Source of the DNA: Candidatus Sumerlaeaceae bacterium
GTDB lineage: Bacteria; Sumerlaeota; Sumerlaeia; Sumerlaeales; Sumerlaeaceae
DNA length: 64,000 nt
Direction: 5' to 3'
Assembly (NCBI GenBank): GCA_049968255.1
Contig: JBMFRB010000003.1
Location: 256,998-320,997, forward strand
A program made the position numbers and the translations under genes. Below, piece by piece: positions 8,176 through 54,036 of the stretch (its first letter is position 1; every line of letters begins with the position of its first letter). A model generated the notes under the pieces. The model saw nothing but the letters and a program-made list of their open reading frames with translations, did not search any database and had not been told where the DNA came from.

Positions 8176-11154
8176 ATGAAGCTCCAAAGTGCACATTGTC
8201 ACGTGTTTACATTCGCCGTGCATCTTGGTCGGGCTACTGTTGTGAGGATCGGGTTGGCTACTCAACCGATGTGTGTTGTGATGGGAAGCGTCGTGAGTTT
8301 GCTGAGCGTCGCGCTTTGTGCTGCGCCTGTGCAAACATCTTATTTGTGGCATCTGCACCAACCCATCTATTGGCCTGATCAACGTTCCTACGGCACGGAC
8401 CATTACGAGGTGGCGTGGGACTCGATCCAGCAGCAAGATGGTGGACGTCCTCACCCCGCCGAAAATCTTCGCTCAATTTTCGGATTGGACGATCGTATCG
8501 CGGCGTACCAATACCGTCCTCGCGACAGTGTCCAGACCATCCTGGGGTTACCCGACGCGGGTGCCCAGGTCAATTATTCAGGAGCTCTCATCGAGAATGT
8601 CAATTCCTTGAGTGGCAACCTTGCCGGTTACTATTCGGGATGGCAAAACAGTTTCATCCAGGCGCACGGCTGGACCACCAGTGGCGGGAAGCCGCGTATG
8701 GACATTGTCAACTTTACTCATCATCATGCGCTGGCTCCGCTGCATACCACCCGTACGATCGAAATGGAGATTCGGTTGCATCAGTACATCGTGCAGCAGC
8801 GCTTCGGCATCAGCCCGTCGAAAGGGTTCTTCCCCACCGAAATGGCATTTAGCGAGCGGCTCATCCCTGTCCTGAAGTCGCTTGGCATTGATTGGACTGT
8901 CGTGTCGGGTAACCATTTATCTCGAGCATGCTCGGATTTCCCGCTCGTGCTTGGGAGCGGCGGCGAGAACTGCGAGCCACCTAACCTGGCCGACGTGCTC
9001 AACCCCTCGCAGGGCAATTACTTCCGCGCCACGATTGACCGTGGCTGCGCGCCCGCCAACGCTGTGCCCTTCGCCTACACGCCGCACCGGGCCCAATACG
9101 TAAATCCTTATACGGGCCAGGTAGATTCGATCATTGTTGTGCCCAGCGCGATGGAGTACAGCTGGTGGGATGGCTACCGCAATCTCGGCGCCAACGAGCT
9201 CTCGCCCATCGCGACGCTCAACAACCCCTCGCGGCCGATCCTTTTGCTCATGGCTCACGATGGCGACAACGCTTACGGCGGCGGCTATAGCTACTACATG
9301 GAAAGCGTGCAAAATTTTTGCAACGGTGCGGCAGCACTGGGCTACAACCCCACAACCGTCGAGCAATATCTGGCGCAATTCCCTGTGCCCACGAACGACA
9401 TCGTACACGTTGAGGATGGCGCCTGGGTCAATGCCGACAGCGATTTCGGTTCGCCCACATTCATCAACTGGAATTATCCCCTGCTGAATGTGTCTGGCCA
9501 GCCCGACCCGGTCAACGGTTGGCATGAAAAAGCGCGTGAATATGCGATCTACATCGCGACGGAAAATCGCCTCCGAACTGCAGAAGCAGTGCTGGGTCAG
9601 CCTGTGCGCATTCAGGAAGTGCTCAACCCTTCGGCTGGCGCGACAAACGTCGAGCGAGCATGGCATTACTATCTTGGTTCGCTCGACAGCGGCCAAGTCT
9701 ACTATGGCACACCGGGCGACGTTGAGGTACGCGCGACGATCGCCTGCAATCAGGCCGTGCAACGTGCCGACACAGTGCTGGCGGGACAATTCAACGACAC
9801 CGTCGGCCCAACCATCTGGATTCCGCAGCGCTGGCCCTACAACCCAGGCGCTGTGAACTTTGGCGTGGAAACAGGCTATCAGCAAAAAGTTCTAGGGCCG
9901 GATTTCACGGTGTGGACATTCGTCTACGACGTGAGTGGTCTGGCTTCCGTCACGTTGAAATGGCGGGTGGACAATGACGGCCAGAACCCGCTTTCTACGA
10001 CCGAGAACGAAACGTATGCGGGCGGCCCAGGTGTTGGAGCCTGGCAATCGTTGCTGATGAACGGACGCCTCTTTCCCGCCAACAACGTGTACAACAAGCC
10101 GGGAATCGATTACTACGTCTTGCCGCAGTACATTGCGTATCACTACAGCGCGACGATCACTGGTCAGACGAACAAGCTTATTGATTACTACGTCGAGGCT
10201 GTGGATACGCACGGCAACGTCGAGCGCTCGCCGATCATGCACGTCTGGGTAGGCGACCAAAGCGGCGGTAGCAGCGGCACGGGAAACCGCGTGACCCTCT
10301 CGCCCGCCACTCCCACTGCTGGCCAGCCGGTTGGCGTTTCGTACAATCCCGTGGGCGGCCCCCTTCAGGGCGCGACAACCGTGCTCATGCACTGGGGCAT
10401 CAACAACTGGGGCACTGTGCAGCCCGATGTCGCCATGACGTGGAATAGCGGCTCGCAGCACTGGGAGACCACGGTGACCCTGCCCGCCACCGCTACGCAA
10501 CTCGATATGGTCTTCCACAACGGCGCGGGGACGTGGGACAACAATAGCGGTCAGGATTGGCATTTTCCCGTCCAGGCTGGAACCCCACCTCTGTGGACGA
10601 TTGACGGCGTGGCGGAGAGCGACTCCCTGGTGCGCGCTCAAACACCAGGCGGACTCAAGCTCTGGATTGAGCGCGACGGAAACATGCTTTACGTGGCAAC
10701 GCAGGGTGCTGGCAGCGGCCGAGATCATTTTATTTTCATCACGCGTTCGCTCACAACCACCCGCCCGGCGCCATGGGGCAAAGCTGGCACCTGTGTGGCC
10801 TGGGATGCTATGCTTGCCAACGAAGCGGACAACAATTGGAGTGGCTGGTTCGATAAAAATGAGGCGCAAACGCTCGGCGGCTTCACTCAGGGGGCTTCGG
10901 GCGGCCCAGGTGGTGTGCTCGAAGGCACCGTAGACCTTGCTCAGCTCTATCCCAACACTGGCGGGATGATTGCCACAGCTGATGTGCCTAGCCCTATTTA
11001 TGTGGCAGCGGCTGAATACGGAACGAACAACGGCAGTGCGCTCGTAGCCACGACCCAGGTGCCCGCAACGACCAACGGCGATGGCAACCTTGACGCAACG
11101 GAATTCTTCGCCTATGGCCCCGCAGCCGGCGTCGCCGATTGGACGCTTTACTAA
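8176..11154 (+). CDS. Secreted GH119/GH57-fold alpha-amylase-like protein with starch-binding CBM (CBM25/CBM53-like)
   Basis: WHLHQPIYWP, GFFPTEMAFSERLIP (putative nucleophile Glu), AHDGDN (putative acid/base Asp), VHVEDGAW; CBM-like HWGINNW...VFHNGAGTWDNNSGQDW; signal peptide, true start probably 8242-8281. Confidence 0.8.
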   Translation: MKLQSAHCHVFTFAVHLGRATVVRIGLATQPMCVVMGSVVSLLSVALCAAPVQTSYLWHLHQPIYWPDQRSYGTDHYEVAWDSIQQQDGGRPHPAENLRSIFGLDDRIAAYQYRPRDSVQTILGLPDAGAQVNYSGALIENVNSLSGNLAGYYSGWQNSFIQAHGWTTSGGKPRMDIVNFTHHHALAPLHTTRTIEMEIRLHQYIVQQRFGISPSKGFFPTEMAFSERLIPVLKSLGIDWTVVSGNHLSRACSDFPLVLGSGGENCEPPNLADVLNPSQGNYFRATIDRGCAPANAVPFAYTPHRAQYVNPYTGQVDSIIVVPSAMEYSWWDGYRNLGANELSPIATLNNPSRPILLLMAHDGDNAYGGGYSYYMESVQNFCNGAAALGYNPTTVEQYLAQFPVPTNDIVHVEDGAWVNADSDFGSPTFINWNYPLLNVSGQPDPVNGWHEKAREYAIYIATENRLRTAEAVLGQPVRIQEVLNPSAGATNVERAWHYYLGSLDSGQVYYGTPGDVEVRATIACNQAVQRADTVLAGQFNDTVGPTIWIPQRWPYNPGAVNFGVETGYQQKVLGPDFTVWTFVYDVSGLASVTLKWRVDNDGQNPLSTTENETYAGGPGVGAWQSLLMNGRLFPANNVYNKPGIDYYVLPQYIAYHYSATITGQTNKLIDYYVEAVDTHGNVERSPIMHVWVGDQSGGSSGTGNRVTLSPATPTAGQPVGVSYNPVGGPLQGATTVLMHWGINNWGTVQPDVAMTWNSGSQHWETTVTLPATATQLDMVFHNGAGTWDNNSGQDWHFPVQAGTPPLWTIDGVAESDSLVRAQTPGGLKLWIERDGNMLYVATQGAGSGRDHFIFITRSLTTTRPAPWGKAGTCVAWDAMLANEADNNWSGWFDKNEAQTLGGFTQGASGGPGGVLEGTVDLAQLYPNTGGMIATADVPSPIYVAAAEYGTNNGSALVATTQVPATTNGDGNLDATEFFAYGPAAGVADWTLY

Positions 11155-36920: not shown

Positions 36921-38312
36921 TTAGAGCTCGACCGGCACGCCGTATTCGGGAATCTCCGGAGTGAGACCGTAGCGCTCCCGGATAAGCTTGGCCAAGGGCT
37001 CTTGTGCTCGCGGTTCGCCATGGGTCAGCAACACACGGGGGCGAAGCGGCGCGGCGCATCCTAGCCAATTCACAAGTTCGCTTTGGCCAGCGTGAGCGCT
37101 AAAACCGTTTAGCGTGTGGATCGTGGCGCGCACGACAATTTCCTCGCCGTAAATGTGCACCTTCTGGCGCCCCTCCACGAGCTGACGCCCCAGCGTCCCT
37201 TCCGCTTGATAGCCCACAATAAGGACATGTGTTTCAGGCCGCCAGAGATTATGGCGCAGATGATGAAGAATGCGCCCACCCGTGCACATGCCTGAGCCAG
37301 CCATGATCATGAGCGGCCCCTCGAGGTTGTTCAACGCCATGGATTCCTCTGCCGTACGGCAGAATTTCACCGCGGAAAAGTCGCGTTCCAGCTGGCCCGT
37401 GCGGTGCAATTCCATCGCTTCTTCGTCGAAAAGCTCAACGTGGCGCAAGTAAAGGCGCGTAGCCTCCTCGGCCATTGGGCTATCCAGATAGATCGGAAAA
37501 TGCGCAAGGACACCGCTACGAAACAGTGCCGAGAGATGATAGATGAGCGTTTGCGTGCGGCCGATCGCAAAAGCAGGCACAAGGATCTTTCCGCGCCGCT
37601 TGAGCGCCGTATTGATGACGATGCGCGTTTCCTCGAGTGTTTCCGCTAGCGAGCGATGATCGCGGTCACCGTAAGTGGACTCCATGAAGATCGAGTCTGC
37701 CCCGCAGAAGCGCTCCGGATCGCGCACCACCGGCGCCCCCAGATGGCCGATATCGCCAGAAAAAATCGCAACATGGCGACGCCCATTTTCCTCAAGGATA
37801 AGCTCAATACTGGCCGAGCCAAGGATATGGCCAGCCTCTACCCATCGTGCCGTGATACCGGAGGCCACGCGGGTCGGCGTGTTGTATTCGGCGCTCCGAA
37901 ACAGCGTCATGGTCTCAGCCACATCCTCCGGCGTGTAGAGCACTTCGAGCAAGTCGAGTCCGGCGCGCAAGCGTCGGCGATTGATACGAGCAAGGTCTTG
38001 GGCCTGTACTTTCGCCGCGTCGTGCAGAACGAGCGAAGTCAGTTCGACTGTGGCGGGTGTGGCGTAGATGGGACCACGATAGCCAGCCTTCCACAGTAGC
38101 GGCAGGCGCCCGCAGTGATCGAGGTGGCCGTGCGTCAGCACGACGGCATCGAGCGCTTTCACGTCGAGCTGCGGCGGCACCTTGTTCGCCCCATCATGAT
38201 TGTCGTGGCCTTGCATCATGCCAAAATCGACGAGAATTTTTGCACCTGCCGTTTCCACAAGGTAAGCTGAACCCGTAACTGTCCGGGCTGCGCCGAAAAG
38301 TGTCACCCTCAT
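36921..38312 (-). CDS. MBL-fold beta-CASP ribonuclease (Ysh1/TTHA0252-like)
   Basis: GAARTVTGS, THGHLDHCG, AGHILGS, SGDIG, MESTYG, PAFAIGRTQ, FSAHAG, THGE. Confidence 0.93.
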   Translation of the reverse strand: MRVTLFGAARTVTGSAYLVETAGAKILVDFGMMQGHDNHDGANKVPPQLDVKALDAVVLTHGHLDHCGRLPLLWKAGYRGPIYATPATVELTSLVLHDAAKVQAQDLARINRRRLRAGLDLLEVLYTPEDVAETMTLFRSAEYNTPTRVASGITARWVEAGHILGSASIELILEENGRRHVAIFSGDIGHLGAPVVRDPERFCGADSIFMESTYGDRDHRSLAETLEETRIVINTALKRRGKILVPAFAIGRTQTLIYHLSALFRSGVLAHFPIYLDSPMAEEATRLYLRHVELFDEEAMELHRTGQLERDFSAVKFCRTAEESMALNNLEGPLMIMAGSGMCTGGRILHHLRHNLWRPETHVLIVGYQAEGTLGRQLVEGRQKVHIYGEEIVVRATIHTLNGFSAHAGQSELVNWLGCAAPLRPRVLLTHGEPRAQEPLAKLIRERYGLTPEIPEYGVPVEL

Positions 38313-38517
38313 GTCTACTCGATTCCTTTCAGTAAGTCCTTGTGTCACCCGCGCAATGGCTTTAGTCAACGGTGGAGACAAAACAGTTTCACTGGCGCCC
38401 TTCCGCGCGTGAGCGGCCTGCCCAATGATGCCCGACGAATCGGCTTGCGCCGCATCAAGCCCTTGCCGAGAATCACCCCTTATTGCGTGGCAACTCGATG
38501 AACAGGAGTGCATGGCC

Positions 38518-39912
38518 ATGTCGCTACTCGTGCGCAACGGACGAATCGTGACTGCGACAGATGACTACATAGCCGACGTCTACATTCAGGGTGAAACAGT
38601 CACGCTTATCGGGAAAAACCTCGAAGTTCCGGCCGACGAGGTCATCGATGCAACGGGCAAACTCGTTTTGCCGGGCGGCGTAGATCCACACGTTCATCTG
38701 GATCTTCCCGTCGGTGCGGTGATTTCCAGCGACGATTACGAAACCGGCACGCGGGCCGCAGCTTGTGGCGGAACCACGACAGTGCTCGACTTCCCCACCC
38801 AGGAGCGCGGCCGATCGCTGTTCGAAGCGCTCGACCTTTGGCATCAAAAAGCTGCTGGCAAGGCGTGTGTGGATTACGGCTTCCACATGATCGTATGCGA
38901 CATGTCCCCCGAGCGCGAAGATGAGCTTGTCAAATTAGTCGAGCAAGGCATACCCAGCTTCAAACTCTTCACAGCGTATCCCGATCGCCTCTACGTTGAC
39001 GATGGCACACTTTACCGTGTGATGAAACGCGCCGCCGAGCTGCGAGCCGTAGTGATGATGCATGCTGAAAACGGCATCGTCATTGACGAAATCGTGCGAG
39101 CGGCATGTGCGCAGGGCCACACAGAGCCGCAGTGGCATGCGCTGACGCGGCCAGCCCTCATGGAAGGCGAAGCCGTGCATCGCTGTGTCGCGATTGCCCA
39201 GGTCGCAGGAGCTGTACTTTACGTCGTTCACATGTCGTGTGCCGCAGCGCTCGAGCCGCTGCGCGTGGCGCGCGACCGCGGGCAGCTCGTCTTCGGCGAA
39301 ACGTGCCCCCAATATCTCTTGCTCGATCACAGCCAATACGAGAAAGAAGGCTTCGAAGGCGCAAAGTGGGTGATGACGCCGCCGCTGCGCACGAAGGCCG
39401 ATCAAGCCGAGCTGTGGCAGGCCTTGCGGATGGGCGACATTCAAACCATCGGCACAGATCATTGCCCCTTCACCTTGGCGGACAAGGCGCGCGGCCGCGA
39501 CAGCTTCGTAAAAATTCCTAATGGCGCTCCAGGGATCGAAAACCGAATGGCGCTTCTCTATCACGCCGGCGTGCGTTCGGGCGCTCTCACGCTCAATCGC
39601 TTCGTGGAACTCACCAGCACAAACGCCGCGAAGATTTTTGGACTCTTTCCACGCAAAGGAACTATCGCCGTCGGGAGTGATGGCGACCTCGTTATTTTCG
39701 ACCCTAACCGCGAAGAAACAATCAGTGTCCACAATCCGCGTACGCACCACATGCGCGTGGACTACAGCGCCTACGAAGGATTAACGGTGCACGGCTATCC
39801 CGAAACGGTTGTGCTGCGAGGGCACGTTATCGTGCGCGACGGAGAATTTGTTGGCAGGCCAGGTAGGGGACAGTTTCTTGTGCGCCGGCCCTTCGACGAG
39901 CCTGTAGTCTGA
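38518..39912 (+). CDS. hydA: Dihydropyrimidinase / D-hydantoinase
   Basis: PGGVDPHVH, SFKLF, HAENG, YVVHMS, GETCPQYL, TDHCPF, KIPNGAPGIE; AGGAG RBS. Confidence 0.93.
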   Translation: MSLLVRNGRIVTATDDYIADVYIQGETVTLIGKNLEVPADEVIDATGKLVLPGGVDPHVHLDLPVGAVISSDDYETGTRAAACGGTTTVLDFPTQERGRSLFEALDLWHQKAAGKACVDYGFHMIVCDMSPEREDELVKLVEQGIPSFKLFTAYPDRLYVDDGTLYRVMKRAAELRAVVMMHAENGIVIDEIVRAACAQGHTEPQWHALTRPALMEGEAVHRCVAIAQVAGAVLYVVHMSCAAALEPLRVARDRGQLVFGETCPQYLLLDHSQYEKEGFEGAKWVMTPPLRTKADQAELWQALRMGDIQTIGTDHCPFTLADKARGRDSFVKIPNGAPGIENRMALLYHAGVRSGALTLNRFVELTSTNAAKIFGLFPRKGTIAVGSDGDLVIFDPNREETISVHNPRTHHMRVDYSAYEGLTVHGYPETVVLRGHVIVRDGEFVGRPGRGQFLVRRPFDEPVV

Positions 39913-40611: not shown

Positions 40612-40840
40612 TTTTTCTTTTTTCCCCATGTTTCGTTTGGGGCGCACTTTCGTAGTGGCGCATGGGCTTCAGAGCATTGCGCCCCGGCTTCATCTGCGCG
40701 CAATGCCACTAGGTTTGCCCACGGCTCATGAGGATGTGTTCCGCCGCTAAAAGCAAACCGAACGAATCCGCGGTGGACCGGTAGAAATTTCTCACGCCGG
40801 CGTGGTAGAGAAGAGCGTAGGTAACGAGCGCGAAGACACC

Positions 40841-42190
40841 ATGACTGGGATAACGAACCTTCTAACGCCAGAGCAGCGCTACCGCGTTTATATAGAGACC
40901 TACGGCTGCACCTTCAATACCTCGGACAGCGAGGTGATGGCCGGCCTGCTCGAACGCGCCGGCTATGAGGTTGTTCCTGCCGCCGAGCAGGCGGACATTG
41001 TGATTATCAACAGTTGCATCGTGAAGGAGCGCTCGTATCTAGACCTTCGCAAGCGCATCGGCGAACTCGTAACACCTACGTCGGCACTGTCTAAGCGTCC
41101 CATTGTCGTGCTGGCTGGTTGTGCGCCAAAGGTGCCACAGCACGGTGCCGAGTTTCATCATCTTCCTCAGATCGGCCCCGACAACGTTAGCGCGATCGTT
41201 GAAGTCGTCGAGCATGCCTTGGCCGGCAAGCTTCTTCATCGGGTAGAGCGTGAGCACATGCAGCGTCTGACGCTGCCGAAGCGGCGCCGAAATCCCGCCA
41301 TTGAAATCGTCCCTATCTCAAAGGGCTGCCTTGGCAAGTGCACCTTCTGCCAGACCGTCCTTGCGCGTGGCAAACTTTACTCATTTTCGGAAGACGAAAT
41401 CGAAGCAGCGGTGCGCGCAGCTCTCGCCGATGGGGTGCGCATGATCTGGCTCACTTCCCAGGATTGCGGGGCGTATGGCCAGGATTTCGGCAGCAGTTTA
41501 CCCATGCTTCTGCGCCGCCTTGTGCGGTTACCAGGTGATTTCAAGATTCGTCTCGGCATGGTGAACCCCGATTGGGCAAAACGTTTTATCGACGAATTAG
41601 CAGAAATCCTAGCGCATCCGCGATTTTTCCGCTTTGCGCACCTTCCCGTTCAGTCCGGCTCCGATGCCGTGCTTCGCGCCATGCGTCGTGAGTATAGCGT
41701 CGAGGATTTCCTCACGGTGTGTTCCAAGCTGCGAGCTGTTGTGCCTGACGTCTCCCTCGCCACTGACATTATCGCCGGTTTTCCCACGGAAACGGATGAG
41801 GACTGGGTCGCCACCTTGGAGTTGCTTCGCAAAACAGAGCCAGCGGTCGTGAACCGATCTCGCTTTTCACCGCGACCAGGCACCGCAGCAGCGCGCCTCA
41901 AGCCCTTGCCGTCGGCCGTGGTAGCCAAGCGCTCCCGCGAGCTTTACTACTGTACAGCGACGCTTGTGGCCAAGCGTTTGCATCAGTCCGTCGGAGCGGT
42001 TCGCGAAGTGATCGTCGAAGAATGTCCCAAGCCGGGCACCGCGGTCGCCCGCGACCCCGTCTACGCTCCAATCGTGCTCAAGGGAAACTTTGCCCCCGGT
42101 GCGCGCTTGCAGGTCAAATTGGAAAGCGTCGAAGGATTCCACCTGCGCGGCAACGTTGTGCATGCGTGTGCAACCGCGAGCGAACTCTAA
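40841..42190 (+). CDS. Radical SAM tRNA methylthiotransferase, CDKAL1/e-MtaB-like
   Basis: UPF0004 Cys triad (TYGC, NSC, AGC), CLGKCTFC, IWLTSQDCGAYG, IRLGMVNP, HLPVQSGSD, TDIIAGFPTE, TRAM-like end. Confidence 0.88.
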   Translation: MTGITNLLTPEQRYRVYIETYGCTFNTSDSEVMAGLLERAGYEVVPAAEQADIVIINSCIVKERSYLDLRKRIGELVTPTSALSKRPIVVLAGCAPKVPQHGAEFHHLPQIGPDNVSAIVEVVEHALAGKLLHRVEREHMQRLTLPKRRRNPAIEIVPISKGCLGKCTFCQTVLARGKLYSFSEDEIEAAVRAALADGVRMIWLTSQDCGAYGQDFGSSLPMLLRRLVRLPGDFKIRLGMVNPDWAKRFIDELAEILAHPRFFRFAHLPVQSGSDAVLRAMRREYSVEDFLTVCSKLRAVVPDVSLATDIIAGFPTETDEDWVATLELLRKTEPAVVNRSRFSPRPGTAAARLKPLPSAVVAKRSRELYYCTATLVAKRLHQSVGAVREVIVEECPKPGTAVARDPVYAPIVLKGNFAPGARLQVKLESVEGFHLRGNVVHACATASEL

Positions 42191-43835: not shown

Positions 43836-44714
43836 TTAGTCCACCATCACGCCATCACGCGGGGCGCGGCGGCGAAATTCCTCGAGCAGTTGTCGGAACA
43901 CCGGGCCGGGACGTCCCTCGCCAATTGTGCGACCATCCACTTTGACAACAGGCACTAACTCAGCTGCCGTCCCCGTGAGAAAGATCTCATCGGCATCGTA
44001 CACTTCGTATAAGGTAAACGGCTCTTCTCGGATGTTCAGCCCTTGCTCGCGCGCAATCTCGATCACGGCGTCGCGTGTGATGCCGCGTAGTGCGCCAAGA
44101 TAAACTGGCGGCGTCGTGACGATGCCGCTGCGCACAACAAAAATGTTGTCCGCCGTGCACTCGACCACGAAGCCCCGGAGATCGAGAATGATCGCCTCAT
44201 GCGCTCCAGCATTGTTGGCCTCAATGCGTGCTAAGATGTTATTCAGATAATTTAGCGATTTCACACGCGGGTTGAGAGCACTCACCGGTTGGCGCTGGAC
44301 AGCCGCACTAATAACCTCAATTCCGTTCTCGTAGAGTTCTTGGGGAAAAAGGCGGATTTGATCCGCGATAATGAAGACGGTCGGGTGAGGGCAATTGTTC
44401 GGGTTCAGGCCGAGATCGCCTTCGCCGCGTGTAACGACCACGCGAATGTAGCCATTGCGCAGGCCATTGGCACGCACAGTCTCCACGACCGCCCGGCGCA
44501 TTTCATCACGAGAAAGTGGAATAGTCAGCTTCAGGTATTTCGCCGACGACCAGAGGCGCTCGAGATGTTGGTCCAGGCGATAAATACATCCGTCATAAAT
44601 ACGAATGCCTTCGAACACGCCGTCGCCGTAAAGCAAACCATGGTCGAAGACGCTGATCTTTGCGTCCTGCTTTTCCACCAATTGGCCGTCGATCCAGATT
44701 TTCATAGGGTTCAT
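43836..44714 (-). CDS. ilvE: Branched-chain amino acid aminotransferase
   Basis: DHGLLYGDGVFEGIR, KSLNYLNN, LRGITR, DEIFLTGTAAE. Confidence 0.96.
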   Translation of the reverse strand: MNPMKIWIDGQLVEKQDAKISVFDHGLLYGDGVFEGIRIYDGCIYRLDQHLERLWSSAKYLKLTIPLSRDEMRRAVVETVRANGLRNGYIRVVVTRGEGDLGLNPNNCPHPTVFIIADQIRLFPQELYENGIEVISAAVQRQPVSALNPRVKSLNYLNNILARIEANNAGAHEAIILDLRGFVVECTADNIFVVRSGIVTTPPVYLGALRGITRDAVIEIAREQGLNIREEPFTLYEVYDADEIFLTGTAAELVPVVKVDGRTIGEGRPGPVFRQLLEEFRRRAPRDGVMVD

Positions 44715-44738: not shown

Positions 44739-45245
44739 CTACAGCGCTTCGGATTGAATGCTTCGATTTCGGTGACCTGCGGCTGGTCTCTGCGGAACGA
44801 ACAGCTCGCCCGAGTCGAGGACGATTGTGACCGGCCCCCAATTGCAAAGTCGCACCTCCATCATGGCCTGGAACACACCTGTGGCAACGTGCGGGCAAAG
44901 CTGCCGAAGTCTTTCGACAAATCGATCAAATAGCGCCGCAGCCACTTGGGGAGGCGCAGCGCCGACAAAGCTCGGACGACGTCCTTTGCGGCAATCCGCA
45001 AACAGCGTGAACTGACTCACGACAAGCAGCTCGCCGCCGACCTCCAGCAGCGAGCAGTTCATTTTGCCGGCGTCGTCCTCGAAGATACGCAAATTGACGA
45101 TCTTCTGCGCCATCGTTTCAAGCACTGCATCCGAGTCGTCGGACGCCATACCAGCCAGCACCAGAAGCCCTTTTCCAATGGCGCCAACAACTTTGCCGTC
45201 AACGCTCACGCTCGCTTCTTTCACGCGCTGCAAAACAGCTTTCAT
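44739..45245 (-). CDS. dtd: D-aminoacyl-tRNA deacylase
   Basis: [33 protein letters not shown]. Confidence 0.96.
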
Positions 45246-45308: not shown

Positions 45309-47186
45309 TTACGGACCTGGTGCATAGCGTGCCACCACTCGCCCAACGAAAAACGGGCCAAGCGACTGAATATATTCTGACGTTTGCCGGCTCTTGCGCA
45401 TTTCCTGAACGAGGCGCGAAAGCCTGTGCAAGTTCGTTCCGACTAGCCCCACCACGAATTCGTTGTCGTTGCGGTCAAGTCCATAACAAGCTAATCTGAT
45501 ATCATGCGCATAGTCACATTCGCCGTAGACCCGCCCCATCATCGCGTGCTCCATGAGGATCCGTCTTTGCTCTTCTTTGCTCAGGCGTTCGAAATCTGGC
45601 TTACGCCTCAGCGGGTACCACACGGCCCAGTTCCACTCCGTATTCAACAAATAGCGGTACGGGCGCTCAAAAAGCGTGTCCATCAAGTCCGGCTCGCGTC
45701 CGCTCGAATAAGTCCGGCCATACATCGTGCGCTCGATGTCCAGTTCACATTCACACATCGGTGCCGTCTCTGATACCGCTCGCATGAAATCCATGAGAGC
45801 TTCCGGCGCCTCGTTCCACGCCGCGATAGCAAAGGCTCGTGGAAACACAGCGTCGAGATAGAGCACCCAGGGCTGCTTGGGATAGAGTTCGGCTCCCAGT
45901 TTCTCGAGCGCATGGCGGATCTCAGCGACATCGGCCATCCCTTCAAAGGCCAGAATATGCAAGTAGAGACGCCTATCCACGGCCTGAACGACGCCGCCCA
46001 CCGGGCTGCCGAGCTCGCGCACATCACGCGGATCATCGGGGCAATACAGGTCGCGGTTCGGCTCAATACCCCAGCGCTTTGCTGTTTCCCAGTGATAGTC
46101 CCGCATCGGCCATTGATCTGGCTGCGGCGGCCCAAGATATTGCGGCGAGGCGCCCTTGAGCGCCATGCAGCCAGTATTGTCGCCTAACTGCGCGATTTCA
46201 GACACCTCATCGGGCGCCAGGGGCTGGAGGTTCAGCACACCCGCCAATTCCTCTAGGAGCGCCTCGATTGGTTTTGCGTCCGGCATGGCTTCCTGAATCA
46301 ACGTTGGCACAACACTTTCCACCGCCGGCTGTTCCAAGGTCCAGCTGCACGCCAACTGCAGCAGCGTCATGCCGCGCCCATCGGCAATATCGCGCATGCG
46401 CTGGAGTTTCGGTTGCGCAGCTTCAATCCAACCGGCCGGGCGAAACGCACGGTGGTCCGAGCGCGCCAGCCGATCTCCAGGCCGCAGACCGTCCAGAAAC
46501 AATCCTCCGTGGTCCACGACACGGGCCAAGACCTTAATCTGATGCTCTAGAGCTGCGGGCAGCACGAGTCGGCTGGGCCACGGTTCCAAAGGATTGAGAA
46601 TCAGCATGGCCCAATCAATCAGCGAGTGGTAACGGTCGAAGGCGTAAAGAATGTCGAGTGTGAAACCATTGGCCGGGCCAGGGGCAATGCCAAGCAGGCG
46701 CGTCAGCCCGCTTTCCATGAGTTCGCCCATTCCCTCCCATACGTCTTCGCTAGTGTAGCCAATTGAGTCGGGATTGTGTAGGAGGAGGACGTCGAAGTTG
46801 TCCACGCCCAGCCGCTCAAGGGATTTCTCCGCCGCCATGCGCAAATAGGCTCCATACTCATCTGGGCCGCGCAGCGTCGGATCGGTGAAGCGCGGAAAGC
46901 CTTTTTCGCCCGCGCGCTTGCCAAAGTAAAAATCGTGCCCTATCGCGCCGATCAGAGCATATTCGTCGCGTGGCACGCCCTCGAGCGCTTTGCCGAGCAG
47001 GCGGTCCGCCTCGCCACAACCGTAAACGTCTGCGGTGACAAAAGTACGAACCCCGAGTTCGTACGCACGCTGGAAAAGCGCGATGAAGCGCTGCTGCCCG
47101 ATATCCTGACCAAAATGCATAAATCGGCCGCCGCTCCACGTTCCAAGCGCAAGCGGCATGGGATCACGTCCGAGCTGTTCTGTCAT
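45309..47186 (-). CDS. Aldo/keto reductase fused to a chlorite dismutase/ChdC-like heme domain
   Basis: N-terminal LGTW, TADVYG, SLERLG.D.FD.LLLHNPD; C-terminal WYPLRR...EEQRRILMEH..MG, YGLD..DNEFVVGL, MRK, GPFFVG; single uninterrupted ORF. Confidence 0.82.
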   Translation of the reverse strand: MTEQLGRDPMPLALGTWSGGRFMHFGQDIGQQRFIALFQRAYELGVRTFVTADVYGCGEADRLLGKALEGVPRDEYALIGAIGHDFYFGKRAGEKGFPRFTDPTLRGPDEYGAYLRMAAEKSLERLGVDNFDVLLLHNPDSIGYTSEDVWEGMGELMESGLTRLLGIAPGPANGFTLDILYAFDRYHSLIDWAMLILNPLEPWPSRLVLPAALEHQIKVLARVVDHGGLFLDGLRPGDRLARSDHRAFRPAGWIEAAQPKLQRMRDIADGRGMTLLQLACSWTLEQPAVESVVPTLIQEAMPDAKPIEALLEELAGVLNLQPLAPDEVSEIAQLGDNTGCMALKGASPQYLGPPQPDQWPMRDYHWETAKRWGIEPNRDLYCPDDPRDVRELGSPVGGVVQAVDRRLYLHILAFEGMADVAEIRHALEKLGAELYPKQPWVLYLDAVFPRAFAIAAWNEAPEALMDFMRAVSETAPMCECELDIERTMYGRTYSSGREPDLMDTLFERPYRYLLNTEWNWAVWYPLRRKPDFERLSKEEQRRILMEHAMMGRVYGECDYAHDIRLACYGLDRNDNEFVVGLVGTNLHRLSRLVQEMRKSRQTSEYIQSLGPFFVGRVVARYAPGP

Positions 47187-47220
47187 GATGCAAAAATTAT
47201 GAATTGGTGCTAAAAAGCGG

Positions 47221-48252
47221 TCAATAACTCATCTTGTCCAGTTTCACTTTTCCGCGGAAAACCCAATAAATCACAGAGGTATAGCCGAGCACAAAAGGCA
47301 TGCCGATGGCGGCGATGATCGCCATGATGGCCAACGTCTTTTGCGACGAGGCTGCCGTGTAGGCCGTCAGACTGTATTTGGGATCAATCGAGCTAATAAT
47401 CAAATTCGGGAAAAGGGCGATGCCAAAAAGGAAAATCAAGCCTGCCATCGTGCAGCCAGAGCTGATTAGCGCGCGAACTGGATAACCAAGATACACAGCA
47501 CGCGGGATGTTGGCAATGGCGAGCACCGTGAGAATGACCATAGCCCAAACCCACGGGAAGTAGCGGAAATTGTATGTGGCGTTGGGCACTGTAGCCAGTG
47601 TCACGATCGTCGTCAGGATGTAAAAGAACAAAAATGTGCCGAACGCTCGCCAAATCCAGCCGCGAATGCGCTCCTGCAGTTCCCCTTCCGTTTTCATGTA
47701 CAGGTAAATTGCACCGTGCAGGGCAAACATCGAGACGTTGAACACGCCGACGAGAATGGGATACAGGGTCAATAAATCAAAAAAGGTCCCTTTATAATCT
47801 CCATCTGCTCCGATGGGAAGGCCTTGCATCATGTTTCCGACAGCCACACCAAAAAGGAAAGACGACAGAAAGCTGGAGAGGAAAAACGCGACGTCCCACA
47901 TTTGCCGCCACCACGGCCACGGTTGCTTGCTGCGAAATTCAAGCGCAACGGCCCGAAAGATGAGGGCGCATAGCAACAACATGAAGGCAAGATAGAACCC
48001 CGAGAAGGCTGTGGCATAGGCTTTCGGAAATGCCGCGAACAATGCCCCTCCCGCTGTCACAAGCCAAACCTCGTTGCCATCCCACACGGGACCAATCGAG
48101 TTCATCAAAATTCGTCGCTCGACATCCTTTTTGACAAAGAGGTGGAGCGTTCCCACCCCAAGATCAAAACCATCAAGGACGGCGTAGCCAGTGAGCAGCA
48201 CGCCAATAAGGAAATACCAAAGCAGGTTCAGGTCGAGCCATTCGGGTGTCAT
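47221..48252 (-). CDS. cydB: Cytochrome bd quinol oxidase subunit II
   Basis: YAVLDGFDLGVG, IGPVWDGNEVWL, FAAFP, FRAVALEFR, YWVFRGKV; GGAGG RBS. Confidence 0.97.
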   Translation of the reverse strand: MTPEWLDLNLLWYFLIGVLLTGYAVLDGFDLGVGTLHLFVKKDVERRILMNSIGPVWDGNEVWLVTAGGALFAAFPKAYATAFSGFYLAFMLLLCALIFRAVALEFRSKQPWPWWRQMWDVAFFLSSFLSSFLFGVAVGNMMQGLPIGADGDYKGTFFDLLTLYPILVGVFNVSMFALHGAIYLYMKTEGELQERIRGWIWRAFGTFLFFYILTTIVTLATVPNATYNFRYFPWVWAMVILTVLAIANIPRAVYLGYPVRALISSGCTMAGLIFLFGIALFPNLIISSIDPKYSLTAYTAASSQKTLAIMAIIAAIGMPFVLGYTSVIYWVFRGKVKLDKMSY

Positions 48253-48256
48253 GGTC

Positions 48257-49672
48257 TCATGCCTCCTCCAAAGATGCGGGTTTTTTGATCTCTGCCGCCA
48301 CGTCCAGCAACGAACTTTTCGCCGGACCCGTGTGTATCTCCGCCGTTTCGTCAGGCCCGTGTTGGATTTTGTCATTCATCACATAGAGCCACACCAACAG
48401 CAGCCACGCGTAAATGAAAGCAAAGAGGCCTATGGATATGGCGATCTCCGTTGCACTCACTGCCTTCGACACACTATCGCTCGTGCGCAGAAGACCGTAA
48501 ACCACCCAAGGTTGGCGGCCGACCTCAGCAGCTACCCAGCCAAGCTGATTCGCCGCGTAAGCCGCCAGAATAGCGAAGACGAAAATCCAAAGCAACCATC
48601 GCTGTTCGAACAGCTTTCCACGCCAACGTAAGAACGACGCAAGCAGTGTGATGCCGATAAAGAACATGCCAAGTGCCACCATCGCGTGATACGAATGAAA
48701 TGTGAGCGCAACGGGCGGCCGATCCTCCGGCTTGACCTTGTCAAGACCGTCCACGGGCTTGTTCCAGTCAAAATGCACGAGAAAGCTGAGCATTCCCGGA
48801 ATAGCTATGCCATATTTCACCCGCTCCTCCTGCGGATCGGGATGCCCAAAAAGATAAAGCGGAGCGCCGCCCTGGGGAGTCTTGAATAACCCTTCAAAGG
48901 CAGCTAGCTTTGCGGGCTGAGTGAACGCCACCTGCCGCGCACTCGCGTGACCCGACACAAGTTGCATCAGCGAGGCGATCGTGGCCACCACCAGCGCTAC
49001 GGTGAAAGAACGCTTAGCGCCATCCAGATGCTTGCCGTGGAGGATGTACCACGCACACACGCTCATCACAAAGAACGAACCGAGAATGAAAGCAGCAAGA
49101 ACAGTGTGCGTGAGGCGATTCATGCTCGATGGGTTGAACACAACCGCCCAGAAGTCCGTGATCTCCGCTCGTTGGCTGCCCATGTGTTCCACAATGTGAA
49201 AACCGGCGGGCGTCTGTTGCCAAGAATTGGCGACAATGATCCACACAGCCGAGAAAATCGAACCTAGGCAGACCATCAGCGTCGAAAAGAAGTGCATGCG
49301 CGGCGAAACGCGATCCCAACCGAACACGAGGACAGCTAAGAAGCCCGACTCGAGGAAAAACGCAAAAATGCCCTCCGCGGCGAGAGCCGAACCGAAAACG
49401 TCGCCCACGAAACGCGAGTAAGTTGCCCAGTTCGTCCCAAACTGAAACTCCATCACGATTCCCGACGCCACACCCATCGCGAAGGTCACCGCGAAAAGGC
49501 GCGTCCAAAAACGAGCCATGTTTTCGTAAACCTTGAGGCCCGTCTTGAGATACATGCCTTCGATGATCACCATAATGAGACCTAAGCCGATTGACAACGG
49601 CACAAAAAGGTAGTGGAAGGCCACTGTCAGTGCAAACTGGAGCCTGCTGAGCGTCACGGCGTCAAAGCTCAT
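48257..49672 (-). CDS. cydA: Cytochrome bd quinol oxidase subunit I
   Basis: [53 protein letters not shown]; GAGGAG RBS. Confidence 0.97.
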
Positions 49673-49686
49673 AGCCATTCTCCTCA

Positions 49687-49704
49687 TTGTGAGTTATTTC
49701 ACGA
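49687..49704. promoter_or_regulatory. Rex-like (or CRP/FNR-family) operator upstream of cydA
   Basis: TTGTGAG-TTAT-TTCACGA matches 12/14 of TTGTGAA-N4-TTCACAA and abuts the cydA RBS. Confidence 0.65.
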
Positions 49705-51441: not shown

Positions 51442-54036
51442 TCACTCTGGTGGCTGTGGCTCCGGTCCTTTTTTCCCCCCGCGAATCCAAGCCTGGCGTG
51501 CTAGCAAGTATTGGCGTCGCTTCTCGAGCTCAGTTAGATGTTTTGGCCCGCTCGACGCAGCTACGCCAGCGGGACTCCCCGCCGCGCCATCCGGTTTGTC
51601 ATTAGCCGCGCCCCCCTCTCCACCCACCGGTTTTGCATCTGGCGGCGGAGCCAGGAGCTTTTCGACAAGTACGCGCGCCGCCCCATCGAGCGCACCCGTG
51701 GCGAGCAACTGCTCAAGTCTTTCTTTGAGCGGCGAGCGGCGCGGACCAAGACGCCGCAGAACGTCGACGACCTTTTGCCGCATGACTGGAGTCCCTAACT
51801 GAAGCGCATGAAGCAGCTCAGCGTGGAGGCGTTCTAAGACGGCCGGTGTGACTGGGGCTCTGGCAAAATCCATGAGCGCCGTTGCTGCCGCCGCTGCAAC
51901 AATTGCGTCCTTGTCTATCACGTGTTCGACGATCTTCGGCAACGCTGCGACAGTTTTCTTTTTGGCCAAGCCAGCCATTGCAGCCACACGTCGCGCGCGC
52001 CGTTTCGTCGCCAGCAAAAACCTCGCCTCCAGATCGTGCAGCCATTGCGTTTCCTCGTGCGAGAGCACAGTCGCCGTGGAAATCTCAGCCTGGCCTTCCT
52101 GCGTTTCTGCCGCAGCGCCCGGGAAGACGCCGAACATCCCTTCACCCCCACGTTTCTGCCCCACCTTCATGTAGGCCTGCATGAGGACGTCTGCCGTTTC
52201 TTTTCCAGGGCGAGGAAGTCGGCCACTGCGCACCTCCTCGAAAAGTTCCGCCAGCAGCTCATCAGCTTCCTCGCTAGGGATTTTGCTCACGGCGTAAACA
52301 AGTGCGCTCAGCACTTTGTCGCGCGTGATCTCAGAGCGTTCCTCAGTTCCCGGTTCGAGGATCGTCTCTCGCTGGTAGGGTGTTTTGGGTTTGTCATCGT
52401 GCAGAAACGTATTGGTAATGAGCTGGCGTAGGACGGGTAGCGTGGCGGGATCGGCCAGCTTTGCATAAAGCTCCGCCAGAGCGAGGTAGGCACCGGAAAA
52501 TGTTTTTGCGTGATGCAAAGCCACGCTGTTGATCGTGGCGAGAGCGTGAGGCGCAACACGTTCCAACAGCTCAATGAGCGGCTGGCGGAAGCCTAGAGGC
52601 GCCGTTCTGCCTTGACGCGCCAATTCGGGACGGTCCACGTGCCAAAGCGCTTGTGTGGCAATGGTGGCTGCCCACGTCAATAGCTCGGGATCTAACTTGT
52701 CGAGCGGTCCTTGCAAGAAAGCCAGCGCTGTGCGCATCGCCAACTCGTGATCGCCGGGTGGTAACATTTTCACCACGCGCTTCATAAGCTGCGATCGCTG
52801 CGCACCGTCGAGCGTGCGTGCCGCGCGCCCCAAAGCGTGAAGCACCGCAATCGCATCGCGTCGCGGCGGCCCCGTGAGCACCTTCTCGCGCAAGCATGAC
52901 TGCAGCACCTTCAAGAGCACATCGATTGCTTCTTGTGTGCCGATGCTTCCCAGTGCCGCAAGCGCTTCAGCTCGCACGTCGAGCTGCGGCTCCTCGATCC
53001 ATTTTGCCAACCAGCGCACGCCGGCCGGGTTTCGGAAAAGGCCAATCGTCTCCACAATGGCGGCCGCGATTTTCTTGTTCCAGATGGCCTCAGTCACAAA
53101 GCGCACATAGCTCTCCCACACCGGAGATGCTGCACCAACCTGGGCGAACGTCTTTGTCGCGACAATGCGGGCGGTGCGCCCCAACGACGCGTAAAGCCGT
53201 TGCTCGACACCGGCCAGCGCGCTCGTTGTCGAGAGCTCCTTCGGCACGAATTCCACAAATAGCGCTGTTGCCTCATAATAGCGTTCCCAACGCGGAGAGG
53301 TCAGGCACACAGCAACGATGGCGCGAATGGCCCGCAAAAATCTCTCGAGCTCGTCTTCATTCGGCTCGTGAAGCGCCATGCGATCAGGGAGAAAACGCGC
53401 GAGCTCCACAACTGCTTGGGTGTGCTCGACGCGCATCGCACTGGCCGGCGCCGTCTCGCGTCGATAGGCAGCCGCCCCTGAGCGCTCGTACTCCTCCAGC
53501 ATCGCCACAGCTGCTTGGCCATCGAGCCCTAGTTCGGACGCCGAGCGAGCTAATTGCCGAACAAAACTGGCCGCGCGTTCCTTCTCTGCGACAAGCCCTC
53601 CAAGCAGATTGCCAATCTGCCGCGCGCGCTGCACGCGCTCATCGGGCGTGAATGCCGTGTCGATCAGACTTCGGGCGAGCGCAAATGCACGCTTGAGTTC
53701 ATTTGCCTTTACGGCGCCACGGAACTCGTCCGTCAGGCGCTCATGTGCGATGCGTGCAAGACGCTCCCGCCACTCGTGAAACAGGTCCAAGTCGTGGCGA
53801 AGCGGATCCAGGACAGTATCACCAGCTGGCCCCAGCGCTGGAACTATCTCCTCCTCGAATCGCACGGCCGGCCACACGCGCCACTGATCCCGGTAAAGCT
53901 TGGTCAGCTGCCCAGCGGCTTGCGCTTGATTCGACGCAGCGTGTGGCGAGCGCACAAGCAAGTCCTCGGCGATTGCAAGTGCTTGCGCAATGCGTCCCTC
54001 TTCGAGAGCAATCCAGAGATGTTCCAACGTCGCCAT
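51442..54036 (-). CDS. Large HEAT-repeat alpha-solenoid protein
   Basis: VRAEALAALGSIG.QEAIDVLL and IVAAAAATALMD repeats; 864 aa, no TM. Confidence 0.8.
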   Translation of the reverse strand: MATLEHLWIALEEGRIAQALAIAEDLLVRSPHAASNQAQAAGQLTKLYRDQWRVWPAVRFEEEIVPALGPAGDTVLDPLRHDLDLFHEWRERLARIAHERLTDEFRGAVKANELKRAFALARSLIDTAFTPDERVQRARQIGNLLGGLVAEKERAASFVRQLARSASELGLDGQAAVAMLEEYERSGAAAYRRETAPASAMRVEHTQAVVELARFLPDRMALHEPNEDELERFLRAIRAIVAVCLTSPRWERYYEATALFVEFVPKELSTTSALAGVEQRLYASLGRTARIVATKTFAQVGAASPVWESYVRFVTEAIWNKKIAAAIVETIGLFRNPAGVRWLAKWIEEPQLDVRAEALAALGSIGTQEAIDVLLKVLQSCLREKVLTGPPRRDAIAVLHALGRAARTLDGAQRSQLMKRVVKMLPPGDHELAMRTALAFLQGPLDKLDPELLTWAATIATQALWHVDRPELARQGRTAPLGFRQPLIELLERVAPHALATINSVALHHAKTFSGAYLALAELYAKLADPATLPVLRQLITNTFLHDDKPKTPYQRETILEPGTEERSEITRDKVLSALVYAVSKIPSEEADELLAELFEEVRSGRLPRPGKETADVLMQAYMKVGQKRGGEGMFGVFPGAAAETQEGQAEISTATVLSHEETQWLHDLEARFLLATKRRARRVAAMAGLAKKKTVAALPKIVEHVIDKDAIVAAAAATALMDFARAPVTPAVLERLHAELLHALQLGTPVMRQKVVDVLRRLGPRRSPLKERLEQLLATGALDGAARVLVEKLLAPPPDAKPVGGEGGAANDKPDGAAGSPAGVAASSGPKHLTELEKRRQYLLARQAWIRGGKKGPEPQPPE

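Follow-up and report, generated by a model that had tools for sequence, protein, structure and literature searches.

Introduction

Textbooks distinguish three routes to heme. One of them, the siroheme-dependent (AHB) route, comprises AhbA/B, AhbC and AhbD only in the accessible text of a 2026 review of heme biosynthesis, which describes AhbC and AhbD as radical S-adenosylmethionine (radical-SAM) enzymes and the route as oxygen-independent (PMC13564367). On this route the aerobic growth of Haloferax volcanii depends on PitA, a fusion protein with a ChdC (coproheme decarboxylase) domain, and its anaerobic growth on AhbD, according to the available parts of two reports (PMC5746218, PMC8305020). 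Here, we analyzed a stretch of 64,000 nucleotides (the window) from Candidatus Sumerlaeaceae bacterium (assembly GCA_049968255.1, contig JBMFRB010000003.1, positions 256,998 to 320,997 of the forward strand), in which a 625-aa open reading frame (ORF), P0001, at 45309..47186 on the minus strand joins an aldo-keto reductase (AKR) barrel to a ChdC-like module directly behind cydAB. We propose, with moderate confidence, that this fusion protein finishes heme b synthesis by the AHB route in the presence of oxygen.

The fusion resembles PitA in that a ChdC-type domain is joined to a second domain, and in that the host makes coproheme by the AHB route and has AhbD or an AhbD-like protein. The partner domains differ: as described in the accessible text, PitA carries a C-terminal ABM-like heme-binding domain and a His-rich linker (PMC5746218), whereas the partner here is an N-terminal AKR barrel. 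PitA is also archaeal, and Haloarchaea keep AhbC (accessible part of PMC8305020). A 2020 review of the chlorite dismutase (Cld) fold distinguishes four ChdC clades and mentions no fusions in its accessible text (PMC7611857). Our literature searches, which covered the main text of open-access papers, returned no publication on an AKR-ChdC fusion, and nothing relevant on didecarboxysiroheme or coproheme together with AKR, on siroheme decarboxylase or HemQ in Verrucomicrobia, or on the ChdC clade.

The ChdC-like module

Both modules are recognized by Pfam: Aldo_ket_red (PF00248) matches residues 12-296 (E 6.8e-27; 94.7 bits, cut-off 24) and Chlor_dismutase (PF06778) matches residues 516-617 (E 1.6e-15; 57.7 bits, cut-off 25). 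The AKR-fold module (residues 1-375; 46062..47186, minus strand) is delimited by the Pfam and structure matches, by conserved motifs and by free homologues of ~375-390 aa that cover residues 8-380, and the ChdC-like module (residues 376-625; 45312..46061, minus strand), with its two ferredoxin-like halves, by Pfam, alignment and model. Profile scans of P0001 gave no match to any radical-SAM, ABM or DyP (dye-decolorizing peroxidase) family.

An AF2 model of the full-length protein, built from 46 homologues, reached a pLDDT of 90.7 and a pTM of 0.88. Its top PDB matches in Foldseek are AKRs (TMt 0.75-0.78), namely MtmW (6ow0_A, E 1.5e-17, TMt 0.75) and AKR11A/B. Residues 376-625, modelled separately (pLDDT 86.3), resemble the coproheme decarboxylases of S. 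coelicolor, C. diphtheriae, L. monocytogenes and Geobacillus (TMt 0.65-0.76). Alignments spanning 223-244 columns of the C-module model have TMt 0.72-0.76 (9miq_B, 0.75; 6xuc_E, 0.76), and chlorite dismutases rank from 40 downward at 14% identity. Because the fold match runs over nearly the whole length of the C-module, the module is a complete two-lobed ChdC-type domain and not a fragment. An earlier note, made from the sequence of the window alone, had described a 625-aa ORF with an AKR barrel and a Cld/ChdC C-terminus, 34 nt after cydB on the same strand; Pfam, the structure predictions and the coordinates all agree with that description.

The active-site residues were placed by a profile (HMM) alignment to L. 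monocytogenes ChdC (LmChdC, 6fxj_A numbering). Y524 (WYPLRRK; 45615-45617, minus strand, as are the following) aligns on LmChdC Tyr147 (FYPMSKK), so that the catalytic Tyr of the YP(M/L)xK/R motif is present, and H547 (45546-45548) aligns on the proximal His174. D562 (45501-45503) aligns on Gln187, the distal position, and R564 (45495-45497) follows two residues on in the same strand. The profile alignment thus bears out the proximal His, the ChdC Tyr and the distal Asp that the earlier note had picked out, the last of them by eye, and adds R564, which it did not mention. None of these four residues varies among the 81 clade members compared, which comprise 13 fused loci, the window gene and 67 free C-module proteins. 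D562 and R564 probably both face the heme, as they are spaced i, i+2 on one strand.

The Tyr of ChdC acts as a radical in catalysis, and DyP-type peroxidases have a distal Arg. From the fold and the aligned residues we infer that the C-module is a coproheme decarboxylase of the ChdC type, which binds coproheme. It shares with ChdC/HemQ (L. monocytogenes 5LOQ/6FXJ, S. coelicolor 9MIQ, C. diphtheriae 6XUC) the two-ferredoxin-like-domain fold over its whole length, the proximal His and the catalytic-site Tyr, and coproheme is an intermediate in the pathway of this genome (see below). It differs from them in its identity of only 17-21%, below the equivalog cut-offs, in its position behind an AKR barrel and in its pathway context, downstream of AhbAB rather than CgoX/CpfC. 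Moreover, the distal position, which in ChdC is taken by Gln (Firmicutes) or a distal His (Actinobacteria), holds Asp562 here, with Arg564 at +2, and the accessible text of the fold review does not describe such a distal Asp/Arg pair (PMC7611857). An acidic residue and an Arg on the distal heme side are also found in DyP-type peroxidases, which belong to the same CDE structural superfamily, as a possible peroxide-cleaving pair; by this analogy, Asp562 and Arg564 may act in peroxide cleavage. We describe the gene product as a putative heme synthase of the ChdC type, with a new domain architecture and in a pathway context not seen before, and not as an established ChdC equivalog.

Heme biosynthesis genes of the host genome

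The genome to which the window belongs is 95.75% complete, and PF06778 occurs in it once, which makes the fusion gene its only Cld/ChdC-family gene. HemA (405 bits), ALAD (HemB, 494 bits), HemC (235 bits), the siroheme-synthase N-domain of SirC (cysG_Nterm, 138 bits, cut-off 62), AhbA (166.7 bits, cut-off 140) and AhbB (166.8 bits, cut-off 125) are all encoded in the genome. Searches of the same genome gave no match for ferrochelatase (PF00762, protoporphyrin or coproporphyrin) and a best HemY score of 43.2 bits against a cut-off of 97.85; HemE was not found, the only URO-D match being MtaA/CmuA-like. This combination of genes indicates that heme is made via siroheme, didecarboxysiroheme and coproheme. 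Since this is the sole heme route, coproheme is an obligatory intermediate, and it is exactly the substrate of ChdC.

Additionally, the genome encodes an AhbC/NirJ1-like radical-SAM protein (603 bits), and its best AhbD match is a TIGR04053 radical-SAM/SPASM protein (422 bits, cut-off 395), which scores 292 against 500 with the AhbD model. The AhbD-like gene (G000:C3:395442-396461, locus L168) adjoins ispG, and both it and the AhbC-like gene lie away from the fusion. TIGR04053-like proteins at about 290-315 bits are found in most genomes that carry a fusion.

The AKR module

AKRs use an Asp-Tyr-Lys-His catalytic tetrad. Alignment of the AKR module to MtmW places V50, Y55, A81 and H137 at these positions, so that Tyr and His are kept, Asp is replaced by Val and Lys by Ala; the columns of the catalytic Asp and Lys are both variable among the 46 fused homologues. 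The label of a working aldo-keto reductase was rejected on account of this tetrad. A Gln-to-Met194 exchange in the nicotinamide pocket might have pointed to a loss of cofactor binding, but this argument was dropped, as MtmW also has Met there. V50 and A81 likewise make doubtful the NAD(P)H linkage that the earlier note had ascribed to its heme enzyme; the heme-supply part of that reading holds up in the form of heme b synthesis, with coproheme made by the siroheme route and a single ChdC-like gene. The incomplete tetrad, like the location on the minus strand, was seen in this analysis and is absent from the earlier note.

The invariant elements of the module are D53, H84-D85, PRFTD, HNPD, GPANGF, NPLEPWP and DHRxFR, and most of them are located where the barrel strands end on their C-terminal side. 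Features specific to the clade are the DHRxFR loop, an insertion of 20 residues with PRFTD, and a C-terminal extension of 80 residues that shows the conserved pattern LKGxxxQYxGxPQxDQWP. Compared with the AKR11-14 type and MtmW (6OVQ/6OW0), the module has the same (beta/alpha)8 barrel, with Tyr55 and His137 aligned, and differs in Val50 for Asp, in Ala81 for Lys, in the clade-specific insertion, loop and extension, and in its low identity (20-24%). A divergent fused homologue, P0125 (591 aa, 39% identity), lacks Tyr55, His137 and the DHR motif and keeps the GPANG and NPLEPWP loops, the C-terminal extension and every ChdC hallmark; in its lineage, the barrel may be purely structural. A search of protein-cluster databases with the AKR module returned clusters named 'putative aldo/keto reductase' only. 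A predicted complex of a free AKR (A4) and the canonical ChdC (A5) of one genome scored 0.00, a result that carries no weight either way.

Fused and free relatives

Both Pfam domains are present in 74 of the best 120 clusters at 90% identity (590-680 aa, 50-100% identity), which come from Sumerlaeota, Planctomycetota, Gemmatimonadota, Latescibacterota and Verrucomicrobiota. The fusion is thus neither an assembly artefact nor a one-off, two possibilities that the earlier note had raised. The other 46 clusters are AKR-only (375-403 aa, 57-64% identity to residues 1-380). After clustering at 50%, only P0122 and P0125 span both modules among the best 150 representatives. Longer 'fusions' (ClpC+AKR, GGDEF+AKR, Clp_N+Cld), which are probably unrelated or the product of run-on gene calling, were set aside.

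Species representatives were scanned with two alignments. The whole-protein alignment yielded 80 loci (4 fused and 76 with a free AKR), and the C-module alignment also yielded 80 (13 fused and 67 with a free C-module protein of ~235-270 aa); the two sets have four contigs in common.

Phyletic distribution

Through these loci we reached 44 genomes, of which 13 carry a fusion, 18 a free C-clade protein only and 13 a free AKR. AhbAB is encoded in 13/13 fused and 12/13 free-AKR genomes, hence in 25 of the 26 that bear the AKR, and in just one of the 18 C-only genomes. Ferrochelatase shows the reverse pattern, with one case among the fused and one among the free-AKR genomes (2/26 together) and 14/18 among the C-only genomes. 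A canonical full-length ChdC is encoded elsewhere in all 13 free-AKR genomes (152-237 bits; ORFs in high-GC loci picked by tblastn), and is of the Firmicute type (FYPMxK, Gln) or the actinobacterial type. AhbC/D-like radical-SAM genes were detected at E<=1e-40 in ten of the 13 fused and two of the 13 free-AKR genomes. The derived type of AKR was found in 0/18 C-only genomes; G024 and G025, two of these genomes without ferrochelatase, encode an AKR of the sister type, and three checked genomes that have ferrochelatase contain generic AKRs only.

The sister type has ~30% identity to the derived type, a full Asp-Tyr-Lys-His tetrad and DHRxxR, GPAxG and NxLE motifs in common with it. Both types recur in an independent sample of 151 Verrucomicrobiota, in which the derived AKR occurs in 3 genomes and AhbAB in 44. 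Among these 44, AhbC-like genes are present in 34, ChdC in 11 and an AKR match (E<=3e-25) in 12. The AKR clade is found in 11/11 ChdC-positive genomes (3 of the derived and 8 of the sister type) and in 0/33 ChdC-negative ones, since the AKR match in the ChdC-negative genome G048 is generic and without the clade motifs. AhbC is missing in 9 of the 11 ChdC-positive genomes, as compared with 1 of the 33 ChdC-negative genomes (G076, whose AhbAB match is doubtful). The association in Verrucomicrobiota has a Fisher p of 1.3e-10, a value to be read with the reservation that related genomes are not independent and metagenome-assembled genomes (MAGs) may be incomplete. Taken together, many genomes of aerobic type have AhbAB and ChdC without ferrochelatase and without the radical-SAM enzymes, and one conserved AKR-fold protein tracks this combination. 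In the genomes, the AKR clade thus accompanies AhbAB and ChdC where ferrochelatase is missing.

The free C-clade protein (235-270 aa; L091-L161), in which the Tyr, the His and Asp-x-Arg are invariant, is the only Cld-family match in 17 of 18 genomes tested. In 23 loci its gene immediately precedes that for chorismate synthase, and in 15 it has DUF420, HEAT-repeat and ABC-2 genes as neighbours. This protein may be the ChdC of these diderm phyla.

The AhbA and AhbB matches usually fall in one open frame of 329-460 aa (G032-G044, G048 and others), which suggests that AhbA and AhbB are fused in such genomes. In Solirubrobacterales-type genomes, the AhbAB frames measure 452-718 aa, pointing to a further fused domain or to run-on frames. 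Two Verrucomicrobiota genomes of 0.9 Mb with a type III secretion SctV gene (L183, at G134:C1:315500-335499, and L184, in G158) hold a fused AhbAB, a sister AKR and a ChdC of the Firmicute type (250.5 bits, cut-off 253) within 18 kb. Their heme genes do not form one operon and are interleaved with the ATP synthase operon.

Linkage to cydAB and to heme genes

The genes for both subunits of cytochrome bd oxidase lie upstream of the fusion ORF on the same (minus) strand: cydA, for subunit I, at 48257..49687 (Pfam Cyt_bd_oxida_I, E 2.4e-168) and cydB, for subunit II, at 47221..48252 (Cyt_bd_oxida_II, E 1.9e-102). The listed cydB ORF runs from 47221 to 48375, and the Pfam match begins at residue 49 of this long ORF; the start of cydB is probably M42 at 48252, right behind the cydA stop. 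The cydB stop TGA (47221-47223) and the fusion ATG (47184-47186) enclose a gap of 34 nt (47187..47220, minus strand; sequence inspection). Neither a Shine-Dalgarno motif nor a terminator-like hairpin was found in this spacer. A promoter-like TTGACC-17-CATAAT at 47224..47196 on the minus strand overlaps the cydB stop, and 9 nt separate the end of its -10 element from the fusion ATG. The scanned region contains 4 such sites where 3.0 are expected by chance, and in two relatives the 34-nt spacer length and GCATCATG are conserved and the -10 element is not. If used, the site would give a nearly leaderless mRNA.

The block cydA-cydB-fusion-dtd-ilvE is present at the loci L082 and L083. Counted by genome, all three other Sumerlaeota carriers have it, hence 4/4 with the window included; one of the syntenic carriers belongs to another genus (68% identity). 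Within flanks of ~10 kb, cydA or cydB was found at none of the 11 fused loci of other phyla, none of the 67 free C-module loci and none of the 76 free-AKR loci. Linkage to cydAB is confined to one small lineage and does not characterize the family as a whole. The linkage in other genomes, whose absence the earlier note had named as a refutation, therefore holds among Sumerlaeota and fails in the other phyla, and the function for cytochrome bd that it had suggested keeps little force.

ORF clustering around the 80 C-domain and 80 AKR loci returned lineage-specific neighbours only, among them chorismate synthase, ABC-2 transporter, DUF420, ClpC, DisA and molybdopterin oxidoreductase genes, and no heme genes. 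We also searched the 160 loci by tblastn with the AhbA, AhbB, AhbC, AhbD-like, SirC and HemA proteins of this genome and with a canonical ChdC. The single match came from the AhbD-like and AhbC queries, both on one gene of L025. At that locus an AhbD-like radical-SAM gene, whose product is 41% identical to the TIGR04053 protein of this genome, stands divergently beside a free AKR (8721-9764, minus strand, and 10001-11095, plus strand). It is the only heme-gene neighbour found in the 160 loci.

Discussion

We propose that the fusion acts at the end of the AHB route when oxygen is present. Its C-module would bind coproheme and, with H2O2 or with O2 and electrons, convert propionates 2 and 4 to vinyls via a Tyr524 radical. 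The distal-strand pair Asp562/Arg564 would be the acid-base pair for peroxide cleavage, as Asp/Arg is in DyP peroxidases. The phyletic patterns suggest that the AKR module belongs to the same pathway as ChdC; it may perform, or be needed for, the preceding step from 12,18-didecarboxysiroheme to coproheme. In that case it would replace the oxygen-labile AhbC, and the fusion would join two consecutive steps. The radical-SAM pair (AhbC-like and AhbD-like) would then serve anoxic growth and the fusion behind cydAB oxic or micro-oxic growth, in the manner of PitA and AhbD in H. volcanii.

That the AKR module, in fused or free members of the DHRxFR clade, is itself an oxygen-tolerant replacement for AhbC is a tentative part of this proposal. 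It is suggested by the gap that would otherwise remain, because 11 of the 13 free-AKR genomes, 3 of the 13 fused genomes and 9 of the 11 Verrucomicrobiota would have no enzyme for that step. The position of the invariant residues on the active-site face of the barrel points the same way, as does the fact that fusions of consecutive enzymes are common. UROD offers an example of a cofactor-free TIM-barrel acetate decarboxylase. The two proposed reactions of the fusion are those of AhbC (12,18-didecarboxysiroheme deacetylase) and AhbD (heme synthase), the last two steps of the AHB route. Unlike these radical-SAM/SPASM enzymes, the fusion combines a TIM barrel with a ferredoxin-like barrel, has no relation to them in sequence or fold, and would use a chemistry that tolerates or depends on oxygen; it would work like them without belonging to their families.

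Several observations weigh against this proposal. The Chlor_dismutase match covers profile positions 92-188 of 189, the C-terminal half only, and no NCBIfam ChdC equivalog is reached (HemQ_actino NF042928, 39.1 bits against 235; PRK12276 NF008913, 31.8 against 253). The fusion is not strictly indispensable, because AhbC-like and AhbD-like genes are present in the genome as well, and since such genes are kept in most fused genomes, the AKR tracks ChdC at least as well as it tracks a missing AhbC. Nor is the C-module restricted to the AHB route, given that the free C-clade protein is mostly found alongside ferrochelatase. Carriers are also few: among 75 Sumerlaeota species genomes the fusion was found in only 4, counting that of the window, and the 5 matches among 151 Planctomycetota genomes comprise four fused and one weak. 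No operon-level ahb linkage emerged: AhbA, AhbB, SirC and HemA had no match in any of the 160 loci, and the AhbD-like and AhbC queries matched only the one gene of L025. At least some AKR modules are probably not acid-base catalysts, given that the tetrad lacks Asp and Lys and, in P0125, Tyr and His as well. Finally, the genomes are mostly MAGs of unknown completeness.

Alternatively, the C-module is a coproheme decarboxylase and the AKR module only its helper, which would supply or control oxidant or electrons, or dock, deliver or receive the tetrapyrrole; we consider this rather unlikely, though only slightly less likely than the replacement of AhbC. The loss of these tetrad residues speaks for such a helper. 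CgoX yields H2O2, and the AHB route has no CgoX to generate it, which would give such a helper a task. The AKR clade tracks ChdC in 11/11 Verrucomicrobiota, including two genomes that have AhbC, and AhbC/D-like genes are kept in 10/13 fused genomes. What remains invariant in the module is its loops and C-terminal extension, and the confident two-domain model (pTM 0.88) fits a docked unit. A precedent exists in the accessory heme-binding ABM domain of PitA, for which such a role in tetrapyrrole handling has been proposed (accessible part of PMC5746218). However, the step from didecarboxysiroheme would have to be done by some other enzyme in every genome without AhbC, leaving the gap counted above; moreover, most invariants lie at the C-terminal strand ends, the place of the AKR active site, and look catalytic, and the sister type has the full tetrad. 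Quite another role, which we consider improbable, would be that of a stress enzyme in which a heme peroxidase with a DyP-like Asp/Arg pair and a carbonyl reductase, co-expressed with cytochrome bd, clear peroxides and reactive aldehydes in air. The invariance of D562 and R564 on the distal strand, the cydAB adjacency in the four Sumerlaeota carriers and the missing equivalog score would suit it. Nevertheless, such a role explains neither the association of the AKR clade with AhbAB and ChdC and its avoidance of ferrochelatase nor the canonical ChdC that accompanies the free AKR; the ChdC-specific Tyr is invariant, the AKR lacks residues needed for carbonyl reduction, and the cydAB linkage is absent in 11/11 fused loci of other phyla. 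As for oxidant detoxification, which the earlier note had offered as an option, no result speaks for it.

A role as a dedicated maturation factor for cytochrome bd, responsible for the synthesis, modification (heme d) or insertion of the oxidase hemes, is very improbable; neither cydA nor cydB lies within ~10 kb of the 11 fused loci of other phyla, the 67 free C-clade loci or the 76 free-AKR loci. Such a role could draw on the spacing of 19-34 nt behind cydB on the same strand, conserved across two genera, and on the lack of a terminator-like site in the gap; it is opposed by the promoter-like site in that gap and by the downstream syntenic dtd and ilvE-like genes, which are unrelated to respiration. 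Least probable of all, to the point of being negligible, is a chlorite dismutase that detoxifies chlorite. The Pfam family is named Chlor_dismutase and an Arg (R564) lies near the distal position, but the catalytic distal Arg position itself, aligned with LmChdC Gln187, holds Asp562, the ChdC Tyr is present, and the best structural matches are ChdCs, with chlorite dismutases ranking far below. A functional chlorite dismutase was rejected on these grounds; according to the accessible text of the fold review, Cld-like proteins that lack this Arg proved to be ChdCs (PMC7611857).

If our proposal of an AKR-catalyzed step is true, AhbAB, the AKR clade and ChdC would constitute a fourth, aerobic and radical-SAM-free variant of heme biosynthesis, a possibility that we raise with considerable doubt. 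This variant would extend over Verrucomicrobiota, Thermoleophilia, Planctomycetota, Latescibacterota and Sumerlaeota, and even over reduced genomes of 0.9 Mb, and the fusion in the window would be one polypeptide for the last two steps of heme synthesis. Should the AKR fill the AhbC step, this would be a new enzyme chemistry, the removal of acetate side chains on a TIM barrel, and heme-pathway annotation would change for several large phyla. On a more modest reading, the haloarchaeal arrangement of PitA and AhbD for the aerobic and anaerobic last step would be extended to bacteria, and a ChdC clade with an Asp/Arg distal pair would be defined.

Other genes near the fusion

The dtd gene (D-Tyr-tRNA deacylase, by Pfam; 44739..45245, minus strand) starts 63 nt downstream of the fusion, has its own ribosome-binding site (GAGGAGA) and belongs to the Sumerlaeota syntenic block. 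The last gene of the block encodes a class IV aminotransferase (ilvE-like, by Pfam) at 43836..44714 on the minus strand. Large ORFs listed near the fusion are located at 51442-54036 and 36921-38537 on the minus strand and at 38425-39912 and 40802-42190 on the plus strand, and the first of them encodes an 864-aa HEAT-repeat protein.

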